This document shows, in pieces, positions 2,182 through 42,499 of a stretch of DNA of 45,816 nt. Within the stretch, counting starts at the first letter, position 1. Every line of letters begins with the position of its first letter. Where the stretch lies: the NCBI GenBank assembly GCA_049975765.1, contig JBNGDZ010000003.1, positions 6,269-52,084 of the forward strand, read 5' to 3'. Origin of the DNA: Armatimonadota bacterium (GTDB lineage: Bacteria; Armatimonadota; Zipacnadia; Zipacnadales; UBA5352). The notes below the pieces were generated by a model. It was given only the letters and a program-made list of their open reading frames with translations. It made no database searches and was not told the DNA's origin. A program made the position numbers and the translations under genes.

Positions 2182-3384
2182 CTACTCCTGCGGCACCGGC
2201 ATCGGCAGCCCCTTCTCGCGCAGGAGTCTGAGGTACTCCGAGTGGAGGGCGTTCCAGACCATCTCGTTCCGGAACTGGTCGCATACGCGCTCTCGGGCTG
2301 CCCGGCCGTGACGCAGTCGCAGGTCCGGATCCTCGACGTAGGTGAGTATGGCCTCCCGCAGTGATTCGACGGCTCCCACGGGAACCTGCAGGCCGGTGAC
2401 TCCATCCTCGACAGCGTCGATGCAGCCCAGTGCATCAGTAGTTACCAGTGGCAGGCCCATGGCCCCGGCCTCCAGTGCTATGGTGGGGAGGCCCTCGCGA
2501 TAGCTCGGTGCCAGGCAGAAGTCCATGGCGCCGTAGAGCGGAACCACCTCATCAACCCAGCCCGTGAGCTTGATCCGCGGGTCCTCCTCCACGACGCGGC
2601 GTGTGTCCGGGCTGACCGGATCGGTCTCATCGAAATCCCCGACCAGCAGTAGGTAGAGATCGGTGACCTCTTCGCGGAGCAGTGACCACGCCTCGACGAT
2701 CTCCTCGATCCCCTTGTCCCGCACTATGCGGCCGAGGAAGCCCGCCACGACGGCGTTCTCGGGCACGCCGAGGTGCTGACGGACGCGAGCGCGAGATCCC
2801 GGTTCGAGGCGCTCAGGATTGAACCTGTGTTCCACATCCACCCCGTTACCGTGCCCACTGGCCAGGACTCTGGCACGCTCGGCGGTGCAGACGCCGTTCT
2901 CGATCATAGCCTGACGGACGGACGGGCTGACACAGAGGACGCTGTCGGCGAGTCGGCAGGCCACCTTCTCAGCCTGCATCACCATCAACCGCTGCAGACC
3001 GGTCAGGGTCCACCATCTGAGCCCGTTAGCATGGTAGATCCTCACCGGCACGCCGGTTGACCAGCCCGCCATCATGGTCAGATAGCCGGCTTTTGGGGTG
3101 CTGCTATGCACTACAAGGGGCTGGAGGTCGGTGAAGATGCGCCGCAAAGCACTCAAGCCGTGCAGATCCCGCGCGGGAGATATGCTACGGAACATCTCTA
3201 CCTCGTGGACAGCCACCTGCTCGCGCTCAGCAAACTTCTCCAGGAACTCCCCGGGAGGCGCCACCACATGCACGTCCCAACCTCGGCTGCGGAGAAACCT
3301 CCCCTGTCCATCCATGAAGTTCCAGAAGTGGTAGGCATCGGTGGCCACTCGAATCAGCAGAGGCTGCCCGTTGGAGTCACTCAT
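2182..3384 (-). CDS. Glycosyltransferase, GT4 family (Glycos_transf_1)
   Basis: Track ORF 2182..3450. GT-B C-terminal domain motifs: LLLVGDFDETD, APSYREGLPTIALEAGAMGLPLVTTDALGCIDAVEDGVTGLQVP. Start trimmed to ATG 3384 (MSDSNGQPLLIRV...), which has GGGGAG upstream. Confidence 0.85.
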   Translation of the reverse strand: MSDSNGQPLLIRVATDAYHFWNFMDGQGRFLRSRGWDVHVVAPPGEFLEKFAEREQVAVHEVEMFRSISPARDLHGLSALRRIFTDLQPLVVHSSTPKAGYLTMMAGWSTGVPVRIYHANGLRWWTLTGLQRLMVMQAEKVACRLADSVLCVSPSVRQAMIENGVCTAERARVLASGHGNGVDVEHRFNPERLEPGSRARVRQHLGVPENAVVAGFLGRIVRDKGIEEIVEAWSLLREEVTDLYLLLVGDFDETDPVSPDTRRVVEEDPRIKLTGWVDEVVPLYGAMDFCLAPSYREGLPTIALEAGAMGLPLVTTDALGCIDAVEDGVTGLQVPVGAVESLREAILTYVEDPDLRLRHGRAARERVCDQFRNEMVWNALHSEYLRLLREKGLPMPVPQE

Positions 3385-29704: not shown

Positions 29705-31654
29705 TCAGGCCGATCTGGGCCCGAAGAGCAGGACGCGCTCGTCGATGGTCAGCGCCAGCAGGTCCTGGCCCTCAGGCGAGCGCCTCAGCACGCTGCAGCG
29801 CACCTCTGTGGCCGGGCGATCGCCCCAGGCGCCTTTCAGCGCCTCCAGCTCCCGGATGGGCCTGCCGCGGCCGTCGTACAGGGCGAGGGTCTGCCGCGTG
29901 GGGCAGATCCACAGGTGCTGCGGCCCCTCCGGGAGCCACTGCACCGGTCTGGTGCCGGGGATGAAGTGCGGCTGTATGGTCCAGAGCCTGTCGCCGAGGC
30001 CGGACAGGAGCGTCGTGATGCCCATGTTCCCCCAGCGGGTGTGGGCAAGAGCCTGTCGGCCGGGCATGTCCTGCCGCACGCGGCACTCCTGCACGCCCTG
30101 AGCGTGGCCGATGCGTTGCACCGCCCGCGTCCTGCCCGTAAGCGGGTTGGTGACGTAGACGCCGGCGCTGCCGCCGATCAGGAATGCCACCGGGTCGCGG
30201 TCAGGGTCGCAGCCGAAGTGCCCCACGGCCACCGCGTCGTAGTGCCCGGCCCCGCGGATGGCGCGCATCTCGTGCGCCAGGTCGTGAACGGCGATGACCT
30301 CGCCGTCAGCGGACAGCGTGGTACCGCCCGCGACGACCTCCGACCGGCCGTCGCCCGTCAGGTCTACGAGGTGGACGGCATTGTGGTGGCCGTAGGGCGG
30401 ATCCACCTCCGCGTGCCACAGCAGGTCCAGGTTCCCGTTGAAGGCCCACAGGTCGCGACCCCCGTGCCCCAGGTCCTGCCGCCAGTGGCGGACGATGATG
30501 TCCACGGGCTCGTCGCCGCTCAGGCGGCCGGTCTCGTTCGAGAGATCATACTGGCGGAGCACATCGAGGTGCGGGTCCTCGGGCAGCTCCCTGCGCGCCA
30601 ACTCCTCGCCGGTGGCGCCATCCAGCACCACGATCTGCGAGGCCACCGTCCAGACATTGGGGTCGCCGCGCACGCTGACCTGCTGGTACGCCCGCTGCCG
30701 ACCGACCAGCGCATAGATGCGCCGCGAGCCGCCGGTGGGCTCCGATGCGATCTTGACCTGCGCCACATCATCGGCGAAGCGCCACAGCTCCTTGCCCGAC
30801 CAGTCCGTCGCCAGCAGGCCGCCGGGACCGCGCAGCAGCAGCTCGTTGTCCTTCCCAGACCGCAGGTTGATGGCCTCCAGGAGACGGTGGCCGGCGGGGA
30901 GGCGCAGCTCATCGACCTGCTCCGCTGGCGGCAGGGCCCCGCGCTCCGCCGCGACCAGCCGGCGGCGCCCCTCCGCCAGTCGCCGGTTCGTGCGCCGCTG
31001 CGAGGGAGTCATGTGCACGGAGGGGGACAGCAGTCGCGAGCCCCCCAGTGAGCGGAAGCCGGCCCGTCCGCACCGGATGGTGGTGTCCGTGGCGAACATC
31101 TCCACCCCAAGCTCCGGGCAGGAGGCCCTCATGCCGTCGCCGTCAAGCTCGACGCGCAGGGTGATGGCCTGCCCATCGTAGTCCACTGGTGCGGAGGCCA
31201 GCTCCAGCCACTCCTGGTCGATGCGGCGGTAAATGACCAGCCGCTGCAGGCCCTCCAGGCACAGGAAGTAGTGCCGCCGCGAAGTCGCGGCGCGAAAGAC
31301 CAGGCCCGCTCGGGCGCGCTCCACCATCCAGTCATCGTTCGTGGGGCCGGCCTCCTCCTGAAGGCCCTGCATCTCGCACTCGATGGCCAGCTCCCGCCAG
31401 GTCTCCTCGCCCGTCACCAGCGCCCGCTCAAGCGCCCCGCCACTCTCGAACTCAAGCGCCGCCCGGCCTCCGCGCTCCACACGGCGCTTCCCGGAGGGCA
31501 GGCGGTAGCCGGCTCGTGGCGCGAGCGGGTCATCCCAGCCCTCCAGCAGCGCCCATGACGGATGATCCGGCTCCATCGGCGGCGCGATCTCGCCGGCTGG
31601 CAACTGCTCGATGGGCAGCTCGATGTGCTCGACGGCCAAGGCCTCGTCAGTCAT
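29705..31654 (-). CDS. Hypothetical protein: ConA-like N-domain plus FG-GAP/PL11-like beta-propeller
   Basis: 649 aa with GGGAGGG 9 nt upstream of the ATG. No signal peptide seen. The C-terminal two thirds have propeller-like repeats, including VDLTGDGRSEVVAGG. Coding quality (GC3, length) is good. Function is not assignable. Confidence 0.6.
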   Translation of the reverse strand: MTDEALAVEHIELPIEQLPAGEIAPPMEPDHPSWALLEGWDDPLAPRAGYRLPSGKRRVERGGRAALEFESGGALERALVTGEETWRELAIECEMQGLQEEAGPTNDDWMVERARAGLVFRAATSRRHYFLCLEGLQRLVIYRRIDQEWLELASAPVDYDGQAITLRVELDGDGMRASCPELGVEMFATDTTIRCGRAGFRSLGGSRLLSPSVHMTPSQRRTNRRLAEGRRRLVAAERGALPPAEQVDELRLPAGHRLLEAINLRSGKDNELLLRGPGGLLATDWSGKELWRFADDVAQVKIASEPTGGSRRIYALVGRQRAYQQVSVRGDPNVWTVASQIVVLDGATGEELARRELPEDPHLDVLRQYDLSNETGRLSGDEPVDIIVRHWRQDLGHGGRDLWAFNGNLDLLWHAEVDPPYGHHNAVHLVDLTGDGRSEVVAGGTTLSADGEVIAVHDLAHEMRAIRGAGHYDAVAVGHFGCDPDRDPVAFLIGGSAGVYVTNPLTGRTRAVQRIGHAQGVQECRVRQDMPGRQALAHTRWGNMGITTLLSGLGDRLWTIQPHFIPGTRPVQWLPEGPQHLWICPTRQTLALYDGRGRPIRELEALKGAWGDRPATEVRCSVLRRSPEGQDLLALTIDERVLLFGPRSA

Positions 31655-31899
31655 CGTGGTCGCCCTCCCAGGTGACCTCTCTTGCTCCCGGCGGCCCTGC
31701 GGGGCTATTCGCCGCCGAGGGAAGCAGGCCTGCGTGCACAGCGCGTAGCGCGCGGGCCCAGATTGCCGCTGGGGGGCGCGGGTGCCCGCGAGGCCGCTGG
31801 CTTCCTACGACGGGCCTGGGGCGCAGGCGAGGTCGCGTGGTGCCTCCGGGCGCTCGCACGCACGCCACGGAGACCTGGGATTCGCGCCCGCGGCAGCCC

Positions 31900-31958
31900 T
31901 TGACATTTATGATACGATATGATATGCATATACACGCTCAGCAATGTTATGATACTCA
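31900..31958 (+). promoter_or_regulatory. AT-rich promoter/operator island upstream of the HTH-thioredoxin gene
   Basis: This is the only markedly AT-rich stretch in the window. Elements: TTGACA at 31900-31905; TATGATA heptamers at 31908-14, 31918-24 and 31948-54 (10- and 30-bp phasing); perfect palindrome ATATGCATAT at 31922-31931; extended -10-like TGtTATGAT at 31945-31953, ending 5 nt before ATG 31959, which has no SD sequence. Confidence 0.4.
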
Positions 31959-32579
31959 ATGGAGTGGATCGCGGTGGACTACCTGACCGTGACGGAGGCG
32001 GCGGAGGCGCTTCAGCTCAGCGTCCCCACCATCAAGCGCTATATCTACGACGGGAAGCTGAAGTCCGCCAAGCTCCCCGGGGGCCAGCACCGCATCCCCC
32101 GCAGCGAGATAGACCGCTTGCTGACACCCACCGGGGAGGAGCAAGCGGAGGCGCTATCTGAGGAGGCCTCGCCCGGCGTTGACAAGCGACTGGCGGTCAT
32201 TGAACGCTGGCTGAGCGACCTGCAGGCCGAGGTCGAGCGGCTGGATTCCACCGCGCAGGTGGTCGCATCCTTCTGCGAGCGCGTGCCGGGAGCGTTCGCC
32301 GAGCGCGCCGCCCCTGAGGGCGGGGGTCATCGCCTGTACATCCTGGGGACCGGCTGCCCCAAGTGCAATCGGCTCCATGAACTCACCACGGAGGCCCTCG
32401 ACGAGCTGGGTGTGGCGGATGCGACGGTGGAGCACATCAAGGAGCCCGCGGAGATCGCCACCTATGGGCCGGTCCTCACACCAGCGCTGGTGCTGGATGA
32501 CACGGTGCTGATCAGCGGCCGCGTTCCCTCCCCCGGTGCGCTCCGTGAGATGCTGCAGGAGCACCTGGAGTCGGCATGA
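31959..32579 (+). CDS. Fusion protein: excisionase/MerR-type HTH DNA-binding domain + coiled-coil linker + Thioredoxin_3 (CxxC) domain; putative redox-responsive regulator
   Basis: N-terminus LTVTEAAEALQLSVPTIKRYIYDGKLKSAKLPGGQHRIPRSEIDRLL is an HTH_17/excisionase pattern. C-terminus YILGTGCPKCNRLHELTTEALDELGV...YGPVLTPALVLDDTVLISGRVPS is the pattern of the small redox-active disulfide protein (Thioredoxin_3). Its stop forms an ATGA overlap with the permease gene. Confidence 0.8.
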   Translation: MEWIAVDYLTVTEAAEALQLSVPTIKRYIYDGKLKSAKLPGGQHRIPRSEIDRLLTPTGEEQAEALSEEASPGVDKRLAVIERWLSDLQAEVERLDSTAQVVASFCERVPGAFAERAAPEGGGHRLYILGTGCPKCNRLHELTTEALDELGVADATVEHIKEPAEIATYGPVLTPALVLDDTVLISGRVPSPGALREMLQEHLESA

Positions 32580-33376
32580 CCCGGCGCCGGTCGCGCGGCG
32601 CGGTCAGCAGGGCCCTGTGGGCCATTGCGCCGGTGGTGCTGGGTCTGATCATCTGGGCGGTGGTGGCAGCCGCGGTCAGGTCGCGGGCGCCCTTCCCGGG
32701 GCCAGTCGAAACCGCTGTCCGTCTCTTTGAGCTTCTTGGGGGCGAGCGCCTGCTCGACTACAGCATCTACACGCATGCGGGGGCGAGCCTCGCCCGCTGG
32801 ATCATCGGCTTCTGCATCGGGGCCTCCGCGGGCGTCACCGTAGCCGCGCTGGTGGGCTGGTCGCGGGTGGCGGAGCGGCTGATGATGCCGCTGGTCTACG
32901 TGCTGCAGCTCATCCCCGGCCTTGCCTGGATCCCCATCGCGATCCTGCTGCTCGGCATTGGGAACGAGGCCACGGTCTTCATGATTGTCATGACGGCGCT
33001 CGCCCCGGTGGCGGTGAACATGGTTGCAGGCCTCAAGAGCGCCTCCGAGCAGCATCTGCGGGTGGCGCGCATGGCCGGGGCCGGCCCCCGGGAGACCTTC
33101 TTCCACGTGCTTCTGCCCGGCTCCATCCCGCACCTGATGAGCGGCCTGCGCGTCGGGCTGGGCAACAGTTGGCGCGTGGTCGTCGCCGCTGAGATGGTCG
33201 TAGGCACCGGCTCGGGGCTGGGCTACAGCATCATCCAGTCGCGGTGGACTCTGGACTACGCTTCGGCCTTCGTCTGCATCATCCTGATCTGCCTGGTGGG
33301 ACTGGTCATCGAGTATCTGGGCTTCGCGCGGCTCGAGGAGGCCACAGTGCAGCGGTGGGGGATGGTGCGAGCCTGA
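32576..33376 (+). CDS. ABC transporter permease, NitT/TauT (nitrate/sulfonate/taurine/bicarbonate) family
   Basis: 266 aa, about 6 TM segments. EAA-loop region SASEQHLRVARMAGAGPRETFFHVLLPGSIPHLMSGLRVGLGNSWRVVVAAEM is typical of SsuC/TauC-like BPD_transp_1 permeases. Confidence 0.85.
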   Translation: MTRRRSRGAVSRALWAIAPVVLGLIIWAVVAAAVRSRAPFPGPVETAVRLFELLGGERLLDYSIYTHAGASLARWIIGFCIGASAGVTVAALVGWSRVAERLMMPLVYVLQLIPGLAWIPIAILLLGIGNEATVFMIVMTALAPVAVNMVAGLKSASEQHLRVARMAGAGPRETFFHVLLPGSIPHLMSGLRVGLGNSWRVVVAAEMVVGTGSGLGYSIIQSRWTLDYASAFVCIILICLVGLVIEYLGFARLEEATVQRWGMVRA

Positions 33377-34158
33377 TGGCGCTCATCGAGCTGTCCGACG
33401 TGGGGATGACCTTCACCGGCGCGAATGACAATGGCGCTGTCAGGGCGCTCGACGGCGTCACGCTGTCGGTTCGGGCCGGCGAGCTGGTGTGCGTGCTGGG
33501 CCCCAGCGGCTGCGGGAAGACCACGCTGCTAAACCTGGTGGCTGGCTTCATGCCCCCCACAGCGGGGAGCATTCGCTTCGACGGCAGGCCGGTGCGCAGC
33601 CCCGGACCCGACCGAGCGGTGGTCTTCCAGGACGCCGCGCTCTTCCCCTGGCTGAGCGTGGCCGGCAACATCGACTTCCCCATGCGCATGATCCACCGAC
33701 CGGAGGCTGAACGGCGCCGCGAACGCGAGCGGCTCATCGCCATGGTCGGGCTGGAGGGCTTCGAGGACGCCCATCCCCATGAGCTGAGCGGGGGGATGAA
33801 GCAGCGTGTCGCCATCGCCCGCGCGCTGGCACTGCAGCCCAGGGTGCTGCTGATGGATGAGCCCTTCGGCGCCCTCGACGCCCAGACCCGGGAGCGCCTG
33901 CAGGACGAGCTGCTCGGCATCTGGCGGCGCACGGGCACGACGATCCTGTTCGTGACCCACAACGTGGCGGAGGCGGCCTACCTCGGCGATCGGATCGTGG
34001 TATTCTCGCAACGGCCCGGACGGGTGCTGGACGACATCCCCGCCGAGCTGCCGCGGCCCCGCTCGCGCCTCTCCGACGGCGTCCGCTCCCTGGAGATGCG
34101 CCTGCTCCGGGAGCTGCCCGAGGTCCAAGACGTCAGTCCGGCGGCCGACTCCGCCTGA
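33376..34158 (+). CDS. ABC transporter ATP-binding protein, NitT/TauT family
   Basis: Track ORF 33244..34158 trimmed to ATG 33376 (TGATG overlap with the permease stop). Walker A GPSGCGKTT, Q-loop VFQD, signature LSGGMKQRVAIARAL, Walker B LLMDEPFGALD, H-loop VTHN. Confidence 0.9.
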   Translation: MALIELSDVGMTFTGANDNGAVRALDGVTLSVRAGELVCVLGPSGCGKTTLLNLVAGFMPPTAGSIRFDGRPVRSPGPDRAVVFQDAALFPWLSVAGNIDFPMRMIHRPEAERRRERERLIAMVGLEGFEDAHPHELSGGMKQRVAIARALALQPRVLLMDEPFGALDAQTRERLQDELLGIWRRTGTTILFVTHNVAEAAYLGDRIVVFSQRPGRVLDDIPAELPRPRSRLSDGVRSLEMRLLRELPEVQDVSPAADSA

Positions 34159-34179
34159 TATGATGCGAGGAGGTGCAGC

Positions 34180-35196
34180 ATGAGGCACGCACGACGTCTT
34201 CTGGTAGTGACGGTGGCGGTGAGCGCGGTGCTGACAGGCTGCGCGCGGAGGGAGCAGGCTCCTCCAGCGCCGGTCCAGATGCCGGAGCCAGTCGAGGAGG
34301 CGCGACGGCCGGTAACCGCGCGCTTCACCTACAGCGAGAAGACCTGCTACGCCCCGGTGATCGTCGCGGTCGAGAGGGGCCTTTACGCCGAGGAGGGGCT
34401 GAAGATCGAGAAGCAGGTGGTTACCGGCGGCATCGAGTCCGCGGAGGCCATCACCACCGGCCAGGCCGATCTGGCGGCGCTGGGCGACGCGCCGGCGGTC
34501 ATCTGTATGTCTCGCTCACCGAAGGTCAAGCTGCTGGCGCCGCTTGGCGACGGCGAGCGCATGCATCGCATCGTGGTCCGCTCGGACGCGGGGATCGACG
34601 AGCCCGCCGACCTGGCCGGCAGGCGCCTCGCCGTCCAGCACGGCTCCAGCACCCATGGCGCCCTGCTGCTGTATCTGAAGAAGCACAACGTGGACCCGGC
34701 CTCCGTCACCTTCGTCTCCCTCTCGCCGCGCGACTTCCCGGAGGCCATGTCGTCGGGGCAGATCGACGCCGCCGCCGGCAGCGCTCCCTGGCCTCAGAAC
34801 GTCCTGGCAACTTGTGACAATGCCGAGCTGTTCGCGAATCTGGAGGGCCTGGGCAACACCTACCCGGTGGTGATTCTCGTGCGCGGGGAGTTCGGCAGCG
34901 AGCACCCGGAGGCGGCGCGGGCCGTCGTGCGGGCGACCCAGGCCGCGGCCGACTGGATCGACGACCACCCGCAGGAGACCGCGGAGCTGCTCTCGCGCCG
35001 ATCCGGCGTCGAGCCCGACCGAGAGCGCGAGATGCTCAACGACTACCGCTTCGGCACCGATCTGACCCGGTCGGTCATCGACAGCCTGGAGATGACAGCC
35101 CACTTCCTCAAGGACCAGGGCCGCATCGACGAGGTACCGGACATCGAGGCCCAGCTCGCGCTGCCCGAGTTGCTGACTGAGGAGGAGCCTTCATGA
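34180..35196 (+). CDS. ABC transporter substrate-binding lipoprotein (NMT1/SsuA/TauA-like), copy 1
   Basis: Lipobox VLTGC. NMT1-like fold pattern: YAPVIVAVERGLYAEEGLKIE...GQADLAALGDAP...LAGRRLAVQHGSSTHG. GAGGAGG lies 6 nt upstream. Confidence 0.85.
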   Translation: MRHARRLLVVTVAVSAVLTGCARREQAPPAPVQMPEPVEEARRPVTARFTYSEKTCYAPVIVAVERGLYAEEGLKIEKQVVTGGIESAEAITTGQADLAALGDAPAVICMSRSPKVKLLAPLGDGERMHRIVVRSDAGIDEPADLAGRRLAVQHGSSTHGALLLYLKKHNVDPASVTFVSLSPRDFPEAMSSGQIDAAAGSAPWPQNVLATCDNAELFANLEGLGNTYPVVILVRGEFGSEHPEAARAVVRATQAAADWIDDHPQETAELLSRRSGVEPDREREMLNDYRFGTDLTRSVIDSLEMTAHFLKDQGRIDEVPDIEAQLALPELLTEEEPS

Positions 35197-36356
35197 CACT
35201 CAAGCTCGCGCGCCGCATCGTGCTATCCGCTGTGACGGTCGCCTCACTCGTTGCGCTAAACATGTTCTTGCCCCCCTCTGTGGAGGGCCAGTGCCCCAGA
35301 CCCGGGAGCTACTGGAAGTGCCCCGTCACCGAGCGCCCCGGCGAGCCAAGGCCGGGCGGCCTGACCGCTCGCGTGCAGGCGCGGTATTCCCACACGCAGA
35401 GCGACCCCGACCAGCCGACCTGGCTGGTGCGCGACGACCGAGCCGGCCGTGACGACTACAACACCAGGCGCCTCCGCCTCGCGTGGTCGCACCAGCCCTC
35501 CGAAGACCTGCTCGTCTTCGGCCAGATCCGCCGCGACTGGGGGGCCGACGAGTTCGAATGGCATGACCTCTACGCCACCTGGTCGGGGCTCGACTGGGGC
35601 AACCTCACCGTCGGTCAGATGATGGCGCCCTTCGACCGCCAGTTCATGACCAGCGACGTCAGGCTGCCCCTCGCGGAGCGGCCATCGTCCAGCATCCTGC
35701 TGGTTCCGGGCCGAGACATCGGCGCGCTGCTGCATGGCACGAGCAGGGATGGCTGCCTGGGCTGGTACGCCGGCCTCTACCTGGGTAACGGTAAGAACGA
35801 GCTCGACGCGACGGGCGCGCCGATGCCGGCGGCCCGAGTGGAATGGCTCGTCAGCGAGAACCTCAACCTAGGGGCGAACTGGGCACTGAACAACGGTGCC
35901 AGGACAAGCAAGTTCCGCAAATTCATCTCGGCGAACGGCGACCCCCTCGGCCTGGCGGAGCTCTACCGGGATCGGCAAGTGGACGAGGAGGCGTGGGGGC
36001 TGGATGCCATCTGGCGCGAGGGCCCGACCTCAGTCTGGGCCGGCTACAATGAGAAGAGCATCAGCGCCTCCGGCCGCCAGGGTGTCACCGCCAGCGGCTG
36101 CTACGCCCAGCTCAGCCGGTTCGTCCCGTGCAGCGGCGCTGAGGACAAGCTCGAGCTCGTGGGGGCGTGGGAGGAGTTCGATCCAGGCGCCGCGGCGCCG
36201 CCCAATCTGGAGGCCCGGTGGCTGACCCTGGGCGCGAACTACCACATCGAGGGCTGCGTGCGGCAGGTTCGGCTGCAATACATCCATCGCGACGAGGCCG
36301 CCGGGGACGTGAGCAACGACACCTTGCTGGTGCAGTACGAGCACGTGTTCAAGTAG
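35193..36356 (+). CDS. Outer-membrane porin, phosphate-selective porin O/P (OprO/OprP)-like, copy 1
   Basis: Signal peptide. Amphipathic beta-strand pattern: RVQARYSHTQ, RRLRLAWSHQPSEDLLVFGQI, LTVGQMMAPFDRQF, RDIGALLHG, WYAGLYLGNG. The C-terminus LLVQYEHVFK is a beta-barrel-type terminal aromatic. ATGA overlap with the binding-protein gene. Confidence 0.7.
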   Translation: MTLKLARRIVLSAVTVASLVALNMFLPPSVEGQCPRPGSYWKCPVTERPGEPRPGGLTARVQARYSHTQSDPDQPTWLVRDDRAGRDDYNTRRLRLAWSHQPSEDLLVFGQIRRDWGADEFEWHDLYATWSGLDWGNLTVGQMMAPFDRQFMTSDVRLPLAERPSSSILLVPGRDIGALLHGTSRDGCLGWYAGLYLGNGKNELDATGAPMPAARVEWLVSENLNLGANWALNNGARTSKFRKFISANGDPLGLAELYRDRQVDEEAWGLDAIWREGPTSVWAGYNEKSISASGRQGVTASGCYAQLSRFVPCSGAEDKLELVGAWEEFDPGAAAPPNLEARWLTLGANYHIEGCVRQVRLQYIHRDEAAGDVSNDTLLVQYEHVFK

Positions 36357-36383
36357 TGAGGGGCAAGAGGAGCATGATGCAGG

Positions 36384-36581
36384 AACGTGGCGGAGGCGGC
36401 CTACCTCGGCGATCGGATCGTGGTATTCTCGCAACGGCCCGGACGGGTGCTGGACGACATCCCCGCCGAGCTGCCGCGGCCCCGCTCGCGCCTCTCCGAC
36501 GGCGTCCGCTCCCTGGAGATGCGCCTGCTCCGGGAGCTGCCCGAGGTCCAAGACGTCAGTCCGGCGGCCGACTCCGCCTGA
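36384..36581 (+). pseudogene. 3' fragment (last ~65 codons) of the ABC ATPase gene, created by the tandem duplication
   Basis: Track ORF 36387..36581 (MAEAAYLGDRIVVFSQRPGRVLDDIPAELPRPRSRLSDGVRSLEMRLLRELPEVQDVSPAADSA) is identical to the C-terminus of 33376..34158. It lacks all nucleotide-binding motifs. Confidence 0.85.
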
Positions 36582-36602
36582 TATGATGCGAGGAGGTGCA
36601 GC

Positions 36603-37619
36603 ATGAGGCACGCACGACGTCTTCTGGTAGTGACGGTGGCGGTGAGCGCGGTGCTGACAGGCTGCGCGCGGAGGGAGCAGGCTCCTCCAGCGCCGGTCCA
36701 GATGCCGGAGCCAGTCGAGGAGGCGCGACGGCCGGTAACCGCGCGCTTCACCTACAGCGAGAAGACCTGCTACGCCCCGGTGATCGTCGCGGTCGAGAGG
36801 GGCCTTTACGCCGAGGAGGGGCTGAAGATCGAGAAGCAGGTGGTTACCGGCGGCATCGAGTCCGCGGAGGCCATCACCACCGGCCAGGCCGATCTGGCGG
36901 CGCTGGGCGACGCGCCGGCGGTCATCTGTATGTCTCGCTCACCGAAGGTCAAGCTGCTGGCGCCGCTTGGCGACGGCGAGCGCATGCATCGCATCGTGGT
37001 CCGCTCGGACGCGGGGATCGACGAGCCCGCCGACCTGGCCGGCAGGCGCCTCGCCGTCCAGCACGGCTCCAGCACCCATGGCGCCCTGCTGCTGTATCTG
37101 AAGAAGCACAACGTGGACCCGGCCTCCGTCACCTTCGTCTCCCTCTCGCCGCGCGACTTCCCGGAGGCCATGTCGTCGGGGCAGATCGACGCCGCCGCCG
37201 GCAGCGCTCCCTGGCCTCAGAACGTCCTGGCAACTTGTGACAATGCCGAGCTGTTCGCGAATCTGGAGGGCCTGGGCAACACCTACCCGGTGGTGATTCT
37301 CGTGCGCGGGGAGTTCGGCAGCGAGCACCCGGAGGCGGCGCGGGCCGTCGTGCGGGCGACCCAGGCCGCGGCCGACTGGATCGACGACCACCCGCAGGAG
37401 ACCGCGGAGCTGCTCTCGCGCCGATCCGGCGTCGAGCCCGACCGAGAGCGCGAGATGCTCAACGACTACCGCTTCGGCACCGATCTGACCCGGTCGGTCA
37501 TCGACAGCCTGGAGATGACAGCCCACTTCCTCAAGGACCAGGGCCGCATCGACGAGGTACCGGACATCGAGGCCCAGCTCGCGCTGCCCGAGTTGCTGAC
37601 TGAGGAGGAGCCTTCATGA
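36603..37619 (+). CDS. ABC transporter substrate-binding lipoprotein (NMT1/SsuA/TauA-like), copy 2
   Basis: 338-aa translation identical to 34180..35196. Confidence 0.8.
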   Translation: MRHARRLLVVTVAVSAVLTGCARREQAPPAPVQMPEPVEEARRPVTARFTYSEKTCYAPVIVAVERGLYAEEGLKIEKQVVTGGIESAEAITTGQADLAALGDAPAVICMSRSPKVKLLAPLGDGERMHRIVVRSDAGIDEPADLAGRRLAVQHGSSTHGALLLYLKKHNVDPASVTFVSLSPRDFPEAMSSGQIDAAAGSAPWPQNVLATCDNAELFANLEGLGNTYPVVILVRGEFGSEHPEAARAVVRATQAAADWIDDHPQETAELLSRRSGVEPDREREMLNDYRFGTDLTRSVIDSLEMTAHFLKDQGRIDEVPDIEAQLALPELLTEEEPS

Positions 37620-38779
37620 CACTCAAGCTCGCGCGCCGCATCGTGCTATCCGCTGTGACGGTCGCCTCACTCGTTGCGCTAAACATGTTCTTGCCCCCCT
37701 CTGTGGAGGGCCAGTGCCCCAGACCCGGGAGCTACTGGAAGTGCCCCGTCACCGAGCGCCCCGGCGAGCCAAGGCCGGGCGGCCTGACCGCTCGCGTGCA
37801 GGCGCGGTATTCCCACACGCAGAGCGACCCCGACCAGCCGACCTGGCTGGTGCGCGACGACCGAGCCGGCCGTGACGACTACAACACCAGGCGCCTCCGC
37901 CTCGCGTGGTCGCACCAGCCCTCCGAAGACCTGCTCGTCTTCGGCCAGATCCGCCGCGACTGGGGGGCCGACGAGTTCGAATGGCATGACCTCTACGCCA
38001 CCTGGTCGGGGCTCGACTGGGGCAACCTCACCGTCGGTCAGATGATGGCGCCCTTCGACCGCCAGTTCATGACCAGCGACGTCAGGCTGCCCCTCGCGGA
38101 GCGGCCATCGTCCAGCATCCTGCTGGTTCCGGGCCGAGACATCGGCGCGCTGCTGCATGGCACGAGCAGGGATGGCTGCCTGGGCTGGTACGCCGGCCTC
38201 TACCTGGGTAACGGTAAGAACGAGCTCGACGCGACGGGCGCGCCGATGCCGGCGGCCCGAGTGGAATGGCTCGTCAGCGAGAACCTCAACCTAGGGGCGA
38301 ACTGGGCACTGAACAACGGTGCCAGGACAAGCAAGTTCCGCAAATTCATCTCGGCGAACGGCGACCCCCTCGGCCTGGCGGAGCTCTACCGGGATCGGCA
38401 AGTGGACGAGGAGGCGTGGGGGCTGGATGCCATCTGGCGCGAGGGCCCGACCTCAGTCTGGGCCGGCTACAATGAGAAGAGCATCAGCGCCTCCGGCCGC
38501 CAGGGTGTCACCGCCAGCGGCTGCTACGCCCAGCTCAGCCGGTTCGTCCCGTGCAGCGGCGCTGAGGACAAGCTCGAGCTCGTGGGGGCGTGGGAGGAGT
38601 TCGATCCAGGCGCCGCGGCGCCGCCCAATCTGGAGGCCCGGTGGCTGACCCTGGGCGCGAACTACCACATCGAGGGCTGCGTGCGGCAGGTTCGGCTGCA
38701 ATACATCCATCGCGACGAGGCCGCCGGGGACGTGAGCAACGACACCTTGCTGGTGCAGTACGAGCACGTGTTCAAGTAG
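37616..38779 (+). CDS. OprO/OprP-like porin, copy 2
   Basis: 387-aa translation identical to 35193..36356. Confidence 0.7.
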   Translation: MTLKLARRIVLSAVTVASLVALNMFLPPSVEGQCPRPGSYWKCPVTERPGEPRPGGLTARVQARYSHTQSDPDQPTWLVRDDRAGRDDYNTRRLRLAWSHQPSEDLLVFGQIRRDWGADEFEWHDLYATWSGLDWGNLTVGQMMAPFDRQFMTSDVRLPLAERPSSSILLVPGRDIGALLHGTSRDGCLGWYAGLYLGNGKNELDATGAPMPAARVEWLVSENLNLGANWALNNGARTSKFRKFISANGDPLGLAELYRDRQVDEEAWGLDAIWREGPTSVWAGYNEKSISASGRQGVTASGCYAQLSRFVPCSGAEDKLELVGAWEEFDPGAAAPPNLEARWLTLGANYHIEGCVRQVRLQYIHRDEAAGDVSNDTLLVQYEHVFK

Positions 38780-38796
38780 TGAGGGGCAAGAGGAGC

Positions 38797-39843
38797 ATGA
38801 TGCAGGGCAGAGAGCGCATGCTGACGGCGCTACGAGGGGAGAGGCCGGATCGGGTGCCCATCTTCCTGCGCGACCTGACCCTCGGCCTGGACCTGTGTGA
38901 CTTCAGCACCCCTCAGGTCAGCGCCGGCTATGACGCGGACAGAGCCGCCGAGGCCGTGCTCACCAGCCGGAGGCGCTTCCATCAGGACGCGGTTGTCGGC
39001 TGCATCCACGACCTGGGGTTGGACGTCGAGCCGTTGGGCGGGCGCGTGGAGTTCCCGGAGCGCGGCATCCCGTTCATACGCGAGCATCCGCTCGCCGAGG
39101 ACGAGGCGGCGGCTGCGGCGGAGCCCTTCGACCCCGCTGAGGCCGGCCGGTGGCCGCAGGTGGAGAAGGCCTACCGGCTGGTGCGGCAGCGGCTCGGTGA
39201 CAGCGCGGCGGTGGCCGCCAACGTCGAGGGGCCGGTCACGCGGGCGGGGCTGCTGCGGGGCCTGGAGCGTCTGGCCATGGACCTGGCGACCGACCGCGGC
39301 ATGGCGCAGCGGCTCGTGGAGCTTTCGACGGAGATCGCCGTCAGGCACGTCCCCAGGCTGCTGGAGGCCGGCGCGGACTTCATCTTCATCGCCGCCGCCT
39401 CCGACGGCCCCGCCGTAATCTCGCCCCGTGACTACCTGGAGCTGACCATCCCCGGCCTGCGGCGGATTGTCCGGGCCGCGGGCGACGCGCCGGTGGTCTT
39501 TCATCCGCACGGGCGCTTCACCGACCCGCGCTTCCAGAAGCTGGTTGACGCGGCCATCGACTGCGGAATCGCCGGCTTCCAGTTCGGGGAGCACTGCGAC
39601 CTGGCGGTGGCCAGAGAGCGGTGGGGCGACCGCATCTGCATCCTGGGCGGCCCCGACATCCCGGAGGTGCTGCTGCCCGGGCCGCCCGAGCGCGTCCGAG
39701 AGGTGACCAGGGAGTGTCTCCAGCAGGCGATGGGCGATGGCGGCTACGTTCTCATGGCCTCCTGCTCCCTGCACCGCGGCGCTCCCCTGGAGCACCTGGA
39801 CGCCATGGTGCAGACGGTGCTCGATGAGGGCGGGTACGGGTAG
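38797..39843 (+). CDS. Uroporphyrinogen decarboxylase (URO-D) family protein (MtaA/CmuA-like methyltransferase/decarboxylase fold)
   Basis: Track ORF 38590..39843 trimmed to ATGATG at 38797/38800, which has AAGAGGAG upstream. N-terminus MMQGRERMLTALRGERPDRVPIF is the typical URO-D family opening. Also contains AAVAANVEGPVTRAGLLRG, AGADFIFIAAASDGPAVISPRDY and ILGGPDIPEVLLPG. Confidence 0.75.
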   Translation: MMQGRERMLTALRGERPDRVPIFLRDLTLGLDLCDFSTPQVSAGYDADRAAEAVLTSRRRFHQDAVVGCIHDLGLDVEPLGGRVEFPERGIPFIREHPLAEDEAAAAAEPFDPAEAGRWPQVEKAYRLVRQRLGDSAAVAANVEGPVTRAGLLRGLERLAMDLATDRGMAQRLVELSTEIAVRHVPRLLEAGADFIFIAAASDGPAVISPRDYLELTIPGLRRIVRAAGDAPVVFHPHGRFTDPRFQKLVDAAIDCGIAGFQFGEHCDLAVARERWGDRICILGGPDIPEVLLPGPPERVREVTRECLQQAMGDGGYVLMASCSLHRGAPLEHLDAMVQTVLDEGGYG

Positions 39844-39879
39844 CTGGCGGCGGTCAGCGAGAGGCGACTGCTATCGCAT

Positions 39880-39911
39880 CTCGGCTGCACCCAACCGCGC
39901 GGGCAGCCGAG
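39880..39911 (+). terminator. GC-rich hairpin downstream of the ABC/porin/URO-D operon (possible terminator; no U-tract)
   Basis: Perfect 9-bp inverted repeat: CTCGGCTGC (39880-39888) and GCAGCCGAG (39903-39911), with a 14-nt loop, 37 nt after the stop at 39843. It is followed by CTTCGGG rather than a T-run. Confidence 0.3.
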
Positions 39912-40045
39912 CTTCGGGACTGGTGAGGCTGACGGCAGGCTCGGGCGGCTTCTGCCTCTGCTTATCCACTTTCCCCTGAAGATGCAGTACACTATGCGCA
40001 GCCGACGCGTCCGCCAATTCCTGTTGCCATCGTTCCGCAAGGCCG

Positions 40046-42499
40046 GTGATCGTTGTGAGCTCGCTCCGACGTGGGACGCGCGCGCTTGTGCACGCTCTGC
40101 CGATGGCCGCAGTGGTGGCGCTCGCGGGCGCCGCACCTGCGGTAGCCCAGGATGCGCCCGTGAGTCGGCCCGCGCTCGTTTTCGACTTCGAGACGCAGGA
40201 GCAGATGCGGCACTGGCAGATGCTCGGCGCCGGGGCGGTCGAGCGCTCCGATGAGCGCGCCTTCTCCGGGCGCTGGTCCGCGAGGATCCAGCTCGATCCT
40301 TGGAAGGAGGGCGAGCCGTCGGGCCCGGACACGCCGGAGCTTGGCGACCTCTCGAAGTGGTCCTTCGCGCAGCTCTCCTATCCGGCGCCCTTCGACAACT
40401 GGACGTTCTGGGGGGCATGGCGCGCGCGGATGTACGCCGTGGGTGAGTCTCGCTGTTACCACGAGATCCTCGACGAGAGCGGCGCCAAGTGGTGGCGACC
40501 GATCCGGCTGGAGAGGGACAGGTGGGTGACGGTTGAGATCCCGCTTACCGGTGGGATCGACTTCGCGAACGTCGCCAGGCAGTGGTTCTACCGCGCCGAG
40601 GGGGAGCCGGCGTCAACGATCTTCATCGATGACATCGAGCTCGTCAGGCCTGGGCCCGGGTGGCTGGAGGGCGTGCAGGAGCGGCTTCCCGAGACGCCGG
40701 AGGGGAGCGCGGCCCACGAGGCCGCCGCGGAGAGCATCGCACGAGTGCGGGAGCTGGCGGACGCGGCGCGTGAGGGCTACGCGGACGAAACGCTGACGGT
40801 CGCTGAGGCCACGCGCATCTCCGAGGAGATGCAGAGGCAGGCGCGGGCCGCTCACGCCCGCGCACGCCATGCCGAGGCGCAGGGGATGCTCGGGCTTGCG
40901 CGAGTCCTGCAGCCGGATGCCCGCTTCGGCGTGGGCCTCCTGAGCTCCATGGTGCGCCCCTGCGTTCGCGACAGGTGCTTCGGCGTCGATCTGCGGCGGG
41001 GATGGCACATGCGGCTGGCGCGTGGTGAGCGGGAGAGCTTTCAGGTCATCGTCGTGCGGCCCGACGCGAGGCTGAGGGGCGTGGCGGTGCGGCTGGGAGA
41101 GCTGCGGGCCGACGACGGAGAGGTGCTGCCGGGCGATGCGTCAGGCGTGCGGACCGTCGGATCGTTCCTGCTGGGGCGGCCGGGCTACTATCAGGCGACC
41201 TACGAGGGCTGGCATGCGGATGTGCTGCTGCCCCACGACGAGCCGCTCACTGTGCCCGCCGGGGACTTCCAGGGCTTCTGGGTCACCGTCCACGCGCCCC
41301 GCGACCAGCGCCCCGGCGTCTACCGCGGCGCGGTCACGGTCTCGGCCCGCAACGCGCCGCCCGTGGAGCTGCCGCTGACCGTCACGGTGCGCGAGTTCGA
41401 CCTCCCGCGCCGACCGAGCATGCAGACGGCGCTGAGCTTCAACGACGGCGCCGTGGACGCGGTCTACGGCGGCCATGACCTCCAGCGCATCCGGCGCTTC
41501 CATCGCTTCCTGCTCGACTACTGGATCGAGCCCACCGACATCTACCGCAAGACCCCGCCGGACCTCGATTACATGGAGATGCTGGGCGAGCAGTACTGGC
41601 CGACCCGGTTCAACATCATGCAGATCAGCCGGTGGCCGCTGACCCTCAGCCCCGAGGAGCGCAAGCCCCACGTGGACTTCCTGCTCGACTCGGTCCGTCG
41701 GGTGGTGCCGGAGCTGCGCGAGCGAGGCCTGATGGAGCGTGCCTACATCTACGGCTACGACGAGGCCCGAGTGTGCGACGAGATGCTGGAGGTGCTCAAG
41801 CCGCTGCAGGAGGAGTTCCCCGACCTGGAGATCATCACCACCGCGCACGATCCATCCTACGGCGCAGACACGATCCTCGGAGACTACGTCGACAGCTTCG
41901 TTCCGGCGCAGATGCGATACGACCATCGCGCGGCCGAGGCGGCGCGGGCGCGGGGCCACGATGTCTGGTGGTACTTCTACGTCGGCCAGCAGCATCCGTT
42001 CATCAACTGGTTCCTGCAGTATCCGCTCATCGAGGTGCGAGTGCTCTTCGGGCCGATGGCGGCGAAGTACCGCCCGGATGGGATCCTCTACTGGACGATC
42101 AACGCGTGGACCTCTGGCGGGATCGAGGAGCCGCTTTCAGGCGGGCCGCTGTTCCCGCAGATCGCCCCCGGCTTCAAGGGCGATCACGGAGAGGGCATCC
42201 TGCTGTACCCGGGAGCCGATGGTCCGCTGGCGAGCATGCGGCTGGAGAACGTACGCGACGGGCTGGAGGACTATGAGTACTATCTGCTGCTGGAGCGACT
42301 GGTCTCGGAGGCGGAGGCAACTCCGACCGACCGGCTGACGCACGCGAGGATTGAGGCGGCGGAGGCCCTGCTGGCGGTCAATAGCCGGGTCGTGCGGGAT
42401 CTGGACGAGTTCACGCGCGATCCCGGACTGCTGCGGCGAGAGCGCGAGCGAGTGGCGGACGCCATCGAGCAGCTCACACGGATCGCCGGGCAAACGTGA
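40046..42499 (+). CDS. DUF4091-domain protein (GH123-like putative glycoside hydrolase), secreted
   Basis: Signal-like N-terminus ALPMAAVVALAGAAPAVAQ. Beta-sandwich region: GERESFQVIVVRPDARLRGVAVRLGEL...FQGFWVTVHAPRDQRPGVYRGAVTV...LPLTVTVREFDLP. C-terminus GEGILLYPGADGPLASMRLENVRDGLEDYEYYLLLE is typical of DUF4091. The start is ambiguous (GTG 40046, GTG 40055 or ATG 40103). Confidence 0.75.
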   Translation: MIVVSSLRRGTRALVHALPMAAVVALAGAAPAVAQDAPVSRPALVFDFETQEQMRHWQMLGAGAVERSDERAFSGRWSARIQLDPWKEGEPSGPDTPELGDLSKWSFAQLSYPAPFDNWTFWGAWRARMYAVGESRCYHEILDESGAKWWRPIRLERDRWVTVEIPLTGGIDFANVARQWFYRAEGEPASTIFIDDIELVRPGPGWLEGVQERLPETPEGSAAHEAAAESIARVRELADAAREGYADETLTVAEATRISEEMQRQARAAHARARHAEAQGMLGLARVLQPDARFGVGLLSSMVRPCVRDRCFGVDLRRGWHMRLARGERESFQVIVVRPDARLRGVAVRLGELRADDGEVLPGDASGVRTVGSFLLGRPGYYQATYEGWHADVLLPHDEPLTVPAGDFQGFWVTVHAPRDQRPGVYRGAVTVSARNAPPVELPLTVTVREFDLPRRPSMQTALSFNDGAVDAVYGGHDLQRIRRFHRFLLDYWIEPTDIYRKTPPDLDYMEMLGEQYWPTRFNIMQISRWPLTLSPEERKPHVDFLLDSVRRVVPELRERGLMERAYIYGYDEARVCDEMLEVLKPLQEEFPDLEIITTAHDPSYGADTILGDYVDSFVPAQMRYDHRAAEAARARGHDVWWYFYVGQQHPFINWFLQYPLIEVRVLFGPMAAKYRPDGILYWTINAWTSGGIEEPLSGGPLFPQIAPGFKGDHGEGILLYPGADGPLASMRLENVRDGLEDYEYYLLLERLVSEAEATPTDRLTHARIEAAEALLAVNSRVVRDLDEFTRDPGLLRRERERVADAIEQLTRIAGQT

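Follow-up and report, generated by a model that had tools for sequence, protein, structure and literature searches.

A perfect head-to-tail tandem duplication of binding-protein and porin genes in the assembly of an Armatimonadota genome

Described tandem duplications and the present locus

[quoted passage not shown] That preprint names Ku/LigD end joining or template switching as the source of the class of junctions with 0-4 bp. The duplication analysed here, in a short-read metagenome-assembled genome (MAG) of an Armatimonadota bacterium, is like the SBW25 cases in its head-to-tail arrangement, the lack of flanking direct repeats, the 0 nt of junction microhomology and the position of its breakpoints inside genes. 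Furthermore, the host encodes Ku (177 bits) and a pair of LigD Prim-Pol proteins, which score 305 and 302 bits. The SBW25 duplications span 285-767 kb in cultured isolates and are documented by junction reads, whereas the present one is 2.4 kb long, belongs to a MAG and is known from the assembly alone.

The citT tandem duplication of the E. coli LTEE (Blount et al. 2012, as recounted in PMC4718724) is likewise small, involves a transport gene and has its breakpoints in neighbouring genes. As far as that account goes, the citT duplication is unstable, can collapse to one copy and acts by promoter capture at the new junction. In contrast, the junction here brings no outside promoter, since a single co-directional operon contains both of its partners, and only dosage could change. 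If selected, the present duplication would also resemble the SUL1 amplification in sulfate-limited yeast, as outlined in PMC13515017, in providing extra copies of an uptake component for a scarce anion. Compared with SUL1 as outlined there, only the binding protein and the porin are doubled here, not the permease or the ATPase. The transported anion is probably sulfonate-like, a putative substrate suggested by the SsuA/TauA-like binding protein.

A perfect repeat that exceeds the read length and appears as exactly two copies is also the product of loop handling in short-read assembly (PMC6052550; Chen et al. 2020, PMC7111523), and the k=55 overlap signature and N-gap conventions of the present assembly fit this. 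These studies concern the copy number of repeats with a real junction, or concatenated circular genomes, not a large duplication invented in a single-copy region of a chromosome.

Gene content and junction of the duplicated unit

The window is the whole stretch of 45,816 nucleotides that was analysed. The features of the cluster, all on the forward (+) strand, are as follows.

31959..32579, +, DNA-binding domain of HTH_17/excisionase type, fused to a Thioredoxin_3 domain (Pfam, NCBIfam); opens the cluster and lies outside the unit
32576..33376, +, ABC permease (BPD_transp_1; NitT/TauT-type; Pfam, NCBIfam); single copy, outside the unit
33244..34158, +, ABC ATPase, intact (Pfam ABC_tran 1.6e-34; NCBIfam SaoA/TauB/NtrCD-like)
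33961..36383, +, duplication unit, copy 1 (2,423 bp); 0 mismatches to 36384-38806
34180..35196, +, substrate-binding protein copy 1, NMT1/SsuA family (Pfam NMT1 1.3e-28; PDB TauA 6ssy 8e-18)
35193..36356, +, OprO/P-like porin copy 1 (Pfam Porin_O_P 24.8 bits, cut-off 20.9)
36374..36393, +, novel head-to-tail junction ...ATGATGCAGG/AACGTGGCGG..., joined between 36383 and 36384; 0 nt microhomology, no filler bases
36374..36586, +, chimeric 70-codon ORF (translation); ATGATGCAGG leads into the ATPase remnant in a different frame
36384..38806, +, duplication unit, copy 2 (2,423 bp); string comparison, repeat search, assembly search
36384..36581, +, 3' remnant of the ATPase gene (198 bp) at the head of copy 2; identical to 33961-34158
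36603..37619, +, substrate-binding protein copy 2 (identity to copy 1, ORF list)
37616..38779, +, porin copy 2 (identity to copy 1, ORF list)
38797..39843, +, URO-D/MtaA-family gene, intact (Pfam URO-D 6.4e-51; PDB 4ay7 5.3e-26)

Direct string comparison of 33961-36383 with 36384-38806 reveals two identical units of 2,423 bp. This bears out the perfect head-to-tail duplication described in the first-pass annotation and supplies the self-alignment that it had named as a check for 100% identity. The match cannot be extended by one base on either side, giving exactly 2.00 copies. The repeat search of the window and the search of the whole assembly recover the same two places and no third copy, even partial. 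A perfect repeat of this length cannot have arisen by chance. The G+C content of the unit is 0.687, and that of its surroundings 0.682.

The left breakpoint lies between 33960 and 33961, at a codon boundary just after ...FVTH of the ABC ATPase, and the right one between 38806 and 38807, 10 nt inside the URO-D/MtaA-family gene. As described before, each unit holds the last 198 bp of the ATPase gene (33961-34158 in copy 1), the whole binding-protein gene, the whole porin gene and, at its 3' end, the ribosome-binding site of the URO-D gene followed by ATGATGCAGG. The junction strings quoted earlier (cccac/aacgtgg, gcagg/aacgtgg and gcagg/gcagag) are also those of the sequence.

Neither side has any microhomology (0 nt), and within 60 nt the two breakpoints share no word longer than 7 nt, which is at the shuffle mean of 6.9. 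The shared-word comparison finds no att-like homology at the breakpoints. Similarly, the repeat search and breakpoint comparison find no flanking direct repeats or repeat family at the unit boundaries, and the ORF, Pfam and repeat searches find no transposase gene or long inverted repeat there, in agreement with the earlier statement that these elements are absent. The locus thus combines the features of homology-independent tandem duplications, namely adjacent head-to-tail copies with one novel junction, no extended flanking repeats and microhomology within 0-4 bp. Homologous recombination between flanking repeats is rejected, since there are no such repeats. IS-, transposon- or integron-mediated duplication would involve a transposase or integrase, terminal inverted repeats or shared breakpoint sequence, none of which is found.

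The cluster has the gene content of a NitT/TauT-type ABC importer operon with an OprO/P-like porin (NMT1/SsuA/TauA, BPD_transp_1, ABC_tran and Porin_O_P). The binding protein has TauA (6ssy) and SsuA (2x26/3uif) as PDB relatives and scores 157.7 bits against TIGR01728 SsuA_fam, below the cut-off of 163.5; its N-terminus, MRHARRLLVVTVAVSAVLTGC, looks like a lipoprotein signal. The porin start overlaps the binding-protein stop (ATGA), and the porin assignment passes only just (24.8 versus 20.9 bits), with a weak PDB match to Porin O (E=0.004). The coordinates of the ATPase are those of the longest ORF, the true start being probably further downstream. The URO-D/MtaA-family gene scores 136 bits against TIGR01463 mtaA_cmuA, under its cut-off. 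At the chimeric ORF, the URO-D ribosome-binding site and ATGATGCAGG together precede the ATPase remnant, and the ORF stops 16 nt before the start of binding-protein copy 2.

A scan of 31600-40200 finds no sigma-70-type promoter-like site, by a consensus that may not fit this phylum, and the same scan finds no terminator within the unit. Promoter capture at the junction is not supported, with no sigma-70-like site in the unit and both partners in one co-directional operon.

A MAG of the same genus (88-91% nucleotide identity) is collinear and single-copy over this region. Its sequence maps onto both copies and is uninterrupted across both parental breakpoints, the arrangement expected of the single-copy ancestor; the doubling is therefore specific to the genome under study. 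Four more distant relatives have the order permease-ATPase-SBP-porin-URO-D, with one SBP and one porin each. On this comparison of sequences, the doubling is a derived, clean event.

In public protein sets, the exact SBP, porin, URO-D protein, 70-aa chimeric ORF and a 139-aa junction ORF are recorded nowhere outside this scaffold. An exact 33-mer from the unit start has 0 matches in JGI metagenome contigs. Protein-based scans of metagenome and genome contigs, as well as a search of 5.8 billion proteins, return only relatives at <=87% identity, and no independent assembly of this population was found in the collections searched.

Assembly signature and copy number

The genome is fragmented, with an N50 of 8.5 kb and a total of 5.16 Mb. 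Where piece ends overlap exactly, the most frequent length is 55 nt, with 45 cases and no longer overlap. Gaps consist of 10 N (155 times) or 100 N (17 times), and at three of the 100-N gaps the same 55-mer stands on the flanks, a sign of unresolved loops. From these signatures we infer a de Bruijn graph assembler with k=55 working on short reads, including its probable identity and settings.

As a repeat of 2.4 kb exceeds any short read, both copies would be one graph edge spelled twice. Zero divergence then follows by construction and says nothing about the recency of the event. In addition, metaSPAdes collapses small differences into a consensus (PMC5411777). The first-pass annotation had offered either a very recent amplification or an assembly artefact: real duplication versus artefact is the right choice to pose, but a very recent date does not follow from identical copies in such an assembly. 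Copy number is affected in a similar manner. Loops that exceed the insert size are reconstructed by SPAdes, invariably as 2 copies, including for simulated arrays truly of 3, 4 or 5 copies (PMC6052550). Since two copies are emitted for any simple loop, the two copies here are a lower bound, a convention and not a measurement.

The nature of the join is more informative. The assembler writes Ns where the graph has no path, as it did at 176 gaps, and the join is gapless, which implies a real graph edge of junction k-mers; these k-mers would then have been present in the reads. metaSPAdes disconnects edges with <1/10 of the neighbouring coverage (PMC5411777), and if its defaults were used, junction coverage would be at least about 10% of that of the unit.

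The 5.16 Mb contain 11 perfect tandem duplications with a period >=15. Apart from the unit described here, all have a period <=63 and are simple repeats, with no large perfect duplication elsewhere in the assembly and no other contig sharing the unit. The flanks overlap at 8 of the 176 N-gaps, and all 8 joins carry Ns. Beyond the simple repeats, the assembly thus lacks the further perfect or join duplications expected of assembler error. Systematic duplication at scaffold joins is rejected, this being the only large perfect duplication and ungapped joins elsewhere being clean.

Origin of the duplication and its meaning

The evidence favours, with some confidence, a real head-to-tail junction formed by an end-joining-type tandem duplication and present in the sampled population or a large share of it. 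Illegitimate, homology-independent joining would have connected base 10 of the URO-D-family gene with the final 198 bp of the ABC ATPase gene; candidate routes are end joining of the Ku/LigD type between sister chromosomes and template switching during replication. The binding-protein and porin genes would thereby have been tandemly duplicated, or amplified to a higher number. The assembler would have seen a simple loop and walked it once, leaving two letter-identical copies. We infer both the joining mechanism and the dosage effect; the 0 nt of microhomology and the absence of flanking repeats match the 0-4 bp junction class. The event is ordinary in kind.

An artefact of assembly or pipeline would leave one copy per cell, the second having entered through a spurious loop edge (from chimeric reads, e.g. 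of whole-genome amplification) or a faulty merge or re-assembly after the primary assembly. Perfect identity and a repeat beyond short-read span would equally result, and metagenome scaffolds are known to contain wrong repeat numbers and, rarely, identical sequence that was artificially concatenated (PMC7111523). The duplication is also absent from all relatives examined and from the other public assemblies searched, and in a MAG of such low N50 coverage may be low, so that few reads could carry the junction edge. However, a single-copy region is unbranched in a de Bruijn graph, where a separate edge needs junction k-mers, and Ns would be inserted where a path is lacking, yet the join is gapless and exact. 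Random chimeric reads should mostly join unrelated genomes and rarely two like-oriented points at a distance of 2.4 kb, metaSPAdes disconnects low-coverage edges, and the lack of any other large perfect duplication leaves no systematic error process visible. We therefore regard an artefact as unlikely. An extrachromosomal circle of 2,423 bp beside a single-copy chromosome, either an intermediate excised during amplification or a mobile element of small size, would give the same junction k-mers and, from graph topology, the same loop as a tandem duplication. The unit, however, lacks genes for replication, integrase or transposase as well as terminal repeats and att-like homology, it ends inside two genes, and its G+C matches the surroundings. 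A mobile element or circle is rejected on these grounds and is very improbable.

The junction may also be real but polymorphic or of higher order, carried by a minority of cells (at least about 11%, with metaSPAdes defaults) or by carriers with at least three copies. The deposited two-copy sequence would then match no single typical genome. This is a sub-case of the favoured real junction and does not contradict it. The two copies written by SPAdes for true arrays of 3-5 (PMC6052550) agree with it, as does the metaSPAdes weak-edge rule, which tolerates junction coverage down to 1/10 of that of the unit. Tandem duplications are, moreover, unstable and collapse readily; citT in the LTEE, in the account of PMC4718724, reverted spontaneously. 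The record is equally compatible with a two-copy state that is fixed, and we hold the polymorphic or higher-order state to be possible, if on the unlikely side.

A perfect long tandem duplication in a k-mer graph assembly is uninformative on age or copy number. Gene counts drawn from this record, with its two binding proteins and two porins, its ATPase fragment and its 70-codon ORF, are unfit for use unless the reads are checked. That the event is fixed, selected or expressed is not implied by the record, which is assembly sequence alone.

If the real junction is accepted, all flanking genes remain intact, the URO-D gene lies 2.4 kb further from the promoter, and the event leaves behind an ATPase remnant of 198 bp and an out-of-frame ORF of 70 codons. 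Higher dosage of the binding protein and porin within the same operon is a reasonable consequence. The duplication would then be a small case in nature of gene dosage altered through homology-independent tandem duplication, from a phylum that has received little study, and would hint at substrate capture as the limit on this transporter; in kind, neither is new. A further reading, which we consider doubtful, is that the duplication was selected in nature: under substrate scarcity, an uncultured population would have used a blunt join of the Ku/LigD type to amplify only the envelope 'capture' parts of a sulfonate-like uptake operon, its lipoprotein binding protein and its anion-type porin. If true, this would make the locus a natural counterpart of laboratory nutrient-limitation amplifications.

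Identity, extent and gene content of the duplicated unit

The window corresponds to the piece C3:6269-52084 of the source MAG and spans precisely the interval between two 10-N gaps, in the longest scaffold. A direct string comparison of 33961-36383 and 36384-38806 reveals 0 mismatches over 2,423 bases, bearing out the identical tandem units described in the first-pass annotation. The match ends exactly at both boundaries, not one base further. Hence, the copy number in the record is exactly two, with no fragment of a third on either side. A repeat search and a whole-assembly search of this MAG revealed no further copies elsewhere, and none of its other contigs resembles the unit. The gene and family assignments agree with the content annotated earlier, each unit containing:

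ABC ATPase gene, 3' end (last 198 bp)
NMT1/SsuA-type substrate-binding protein (SBP) gene, complete; its lipoprotein-like signal ends in LTGC
OprO/P-like porin gene, complete, its start overlapping the SBP stop
URO-D/MtaA-family gene, ribosome-binding site and first 10 nt

The SBP is nearest to TauA and SsuA, and the G+C content of the unit is that of its surroundings.

Ancestral state and conservation of the locus

A MAG of the same genus (G001) is collinear with the window, the nucleotide identity being 88-91%. It has one copy, which aligns to each of the two in the window, and it is continuous across both parental breakpoints (33960/33961 and 38806/38807). The order permease-ATPase-SBP-porin-URO-D is kept in G001 and in the loci of four more distant relatives (L007, L013, L014, and L016), each of which has one SBP and one porin. 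As these comparisons read, the ancestral state is one copy. Given the single-copy relatives and the continuity of G001 across the breakpoints, the doubling is derived and constitutes a clean, filler-free head-to-tail join present in this record only. In the public collections searched, the exact products of the locus were seen on this scaffold only and no independent assembly of the same population was found; an exact 33-mer from the unit had no match in metagenome contigs. The nearest public porin is that of G001, with 87% identity.

Between window positions 32576 and 39843, the five-gene order of permease, ATPase, SsuA-like SBP, OprO/P-like porin, and MtaA/URO-D-family enzyme is shared with L007, L013, L014, L015, and L016. 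The order persists among Armatimonadota-type contigs whose proteins are as little as 45-65% identical, which suggests a functional unit that couples the uptake of an anion to an enzyme resembling a methyltransferase or decarboxylase. Nucleotide collinearity with G001 ends just past the URO-D gene, at ~39858. In the 18-kb G001 stretch compared, which reaches ~7.5 kb beyond URO-D, blastn (E<=1e-10) finds no counterpart of the GH123-family gene at 40046-42499; thus, gene content differs there between the window and G001.

Assembler signature and the reading of the two copies

The MAG comprises 770 scaffolds (5.16 Mb, N50 8.5 kb, 83.6% estimated completeness). Exact suffix-prefix overlaps between its pieces show a sharp peak at 55 nt (n=45), with none longer. 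The 176 N-gaps measure 10 N (n=155), 100 N (n=17), or, in a few cases, odd lengths. Three of the 100-N gaps (C69:11358, C176:5004, and C248:2559) bear an identical 55-mer on both flanks; these probably mark unresolved loops or short tandem repeats, where sequence is missing or miscounted. Together, the overlaps, gap lengths, and repeated flanking 55-mers form a de Bruijn graph signature, from which we infer that short reads were assembled at a final k=55 and then scaffolded by a program of the SPAdes/metaSPAdes type.

Because no read bridges a perfect repeat of 2.4 kb, both copies represent a single graph edge that was output two times; small differences are, in addition, deliberately collapsed into a consensus by metaSPAdes (PMC5411777). 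Identity thus arises by construction and does not date the event, and the earlier argument from zero divergence to a very recent origin does not hold. The dnaasm benchmark found that SPAdes recovered two-copy repeats even where they exceeded the insert size, and that simulated arrays of true 3, 4, or 5 copies were written as two (PMC6052550, Tables 4-6). On this analysis, two copies is a lower bound. The main lesson of the locus is how perfect long duplications in graph assemblies should be read.

We consider it probable, with some reserve, that the head-to-tail junction is real and carried by a sizeable share of the population, the two identical copies being an assembler convention. An artefact, with a second copy that is not real, is rather unlikely. 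Known assembly errors include incorrect repeat counts and, in rare cases, identical sequence being concatenated artificially (PMC7111523), which keeps an artefact a live, if less likely, reading. A single-copy region has no graph branch and therefore cannot yield the unit as an edge used twice. In this assembly a missing path is written as Ns, so the join without N implies that the k-mers spelling GCAGG/AACGTGG were present in the reads. Nor is the assembly visibly prone to such an error: the other 10 of the 11 perfect tandem duplications with period >=15 genome-wide are simple or REP-like repeats whose periods lie between 15 and 63 bp.

An extrachromosomal circle as the source of the junction appears very improbable. 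Within the favored reading of a real junction, a polymorphic or higher-copy state is a possibility of some weight. Edges with less than 1/10 of the neighboring coverage are disconnected by metaSPAdes (PMC5411777, section 24); by our own arithmetic for this inferred assembler under its defaults, the two-copy allele would be needed in at least about 1/9 of cells.

Other repeats occur in the same MAG. A second letter-perfect direct repeat of 635 bp (C431:1748-2382 and 2706-3340, offset 958) falls within a pair of neighboring paralogues on the minus strand, both with a prepilin-type N-terminus; the flanks differ, as does the 323-bp spacer. It could reflect gene conversion or a single graph edge common to two paralogues. 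Short perfect tandem repeats with periods of 19-56 (C474:13, C138:5405, C170:36, and C458:2392-2470) centre on a palindromic motif (TAGGTCGGGC...GCCCGACCTA) and look like a REP-like dispersed hairpin family.

Possible origin and consequences of the junction

Junction microhomology is 0 nt on both sides, and the longest common word within 60 nt of the two breakpoints (7 nt) equals the shuffle mean. The three junction strings quoted in the first-pass annotation were recovered by string comparison and, as it had stated, no inverted repeats flanking the unit and no transposase at the unit were found. Flanking direct repeats are likewise absent. These junction features assign the event to the homology-independent class (0-4 bp microhomology), which is ascribed to either end joining by Ku/LigD or template switching during replication (preprint 10.64898/2026.05.22.727201). 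A Ku homologue (177 bits, C137:9418-9903) and two LigD Prim-Pol domain proteins (C134:1973-2737 and C15:21615-22382), one within an 847-residue open frame, are encoded by the MAG, so that the bacterial NHEJ toolkit is apparently complete in this Armatimonadota genome. Either Ku/LigD end joining or template switching may have formed the junction. The event is ordinary in kind and adds one more case to a known class.

If real, the duplication keeps an intact copy of both boundary genes (ATPase, 33244-34158; URO-D, 38797-39843) and doubles the SBP and porin genes within a single cluster of closely spaced, co-directional genes. On its coding strand, neither a promoter-like site (sigma-70-type scan of 31600-40200; the promoter consensus of the host phylum may differ) nor a terminator-like site was found. 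At the junction, a 198-bp piece of the ATPase gene would be left behind and a 70-codon out-of-frame ORF would arise, opening with the start codon of URO-D and ending 16 nt short of the second SBP gene. The citT duplication of the LTEE works through promoter capture and is readily lost by collapse (PMC4718724), whereas the junction described here carries in no foreign promoter. A true duplication would likely provide a higher dosage of two envelope capture components of an uptake system for sulfonate-like or other anions.
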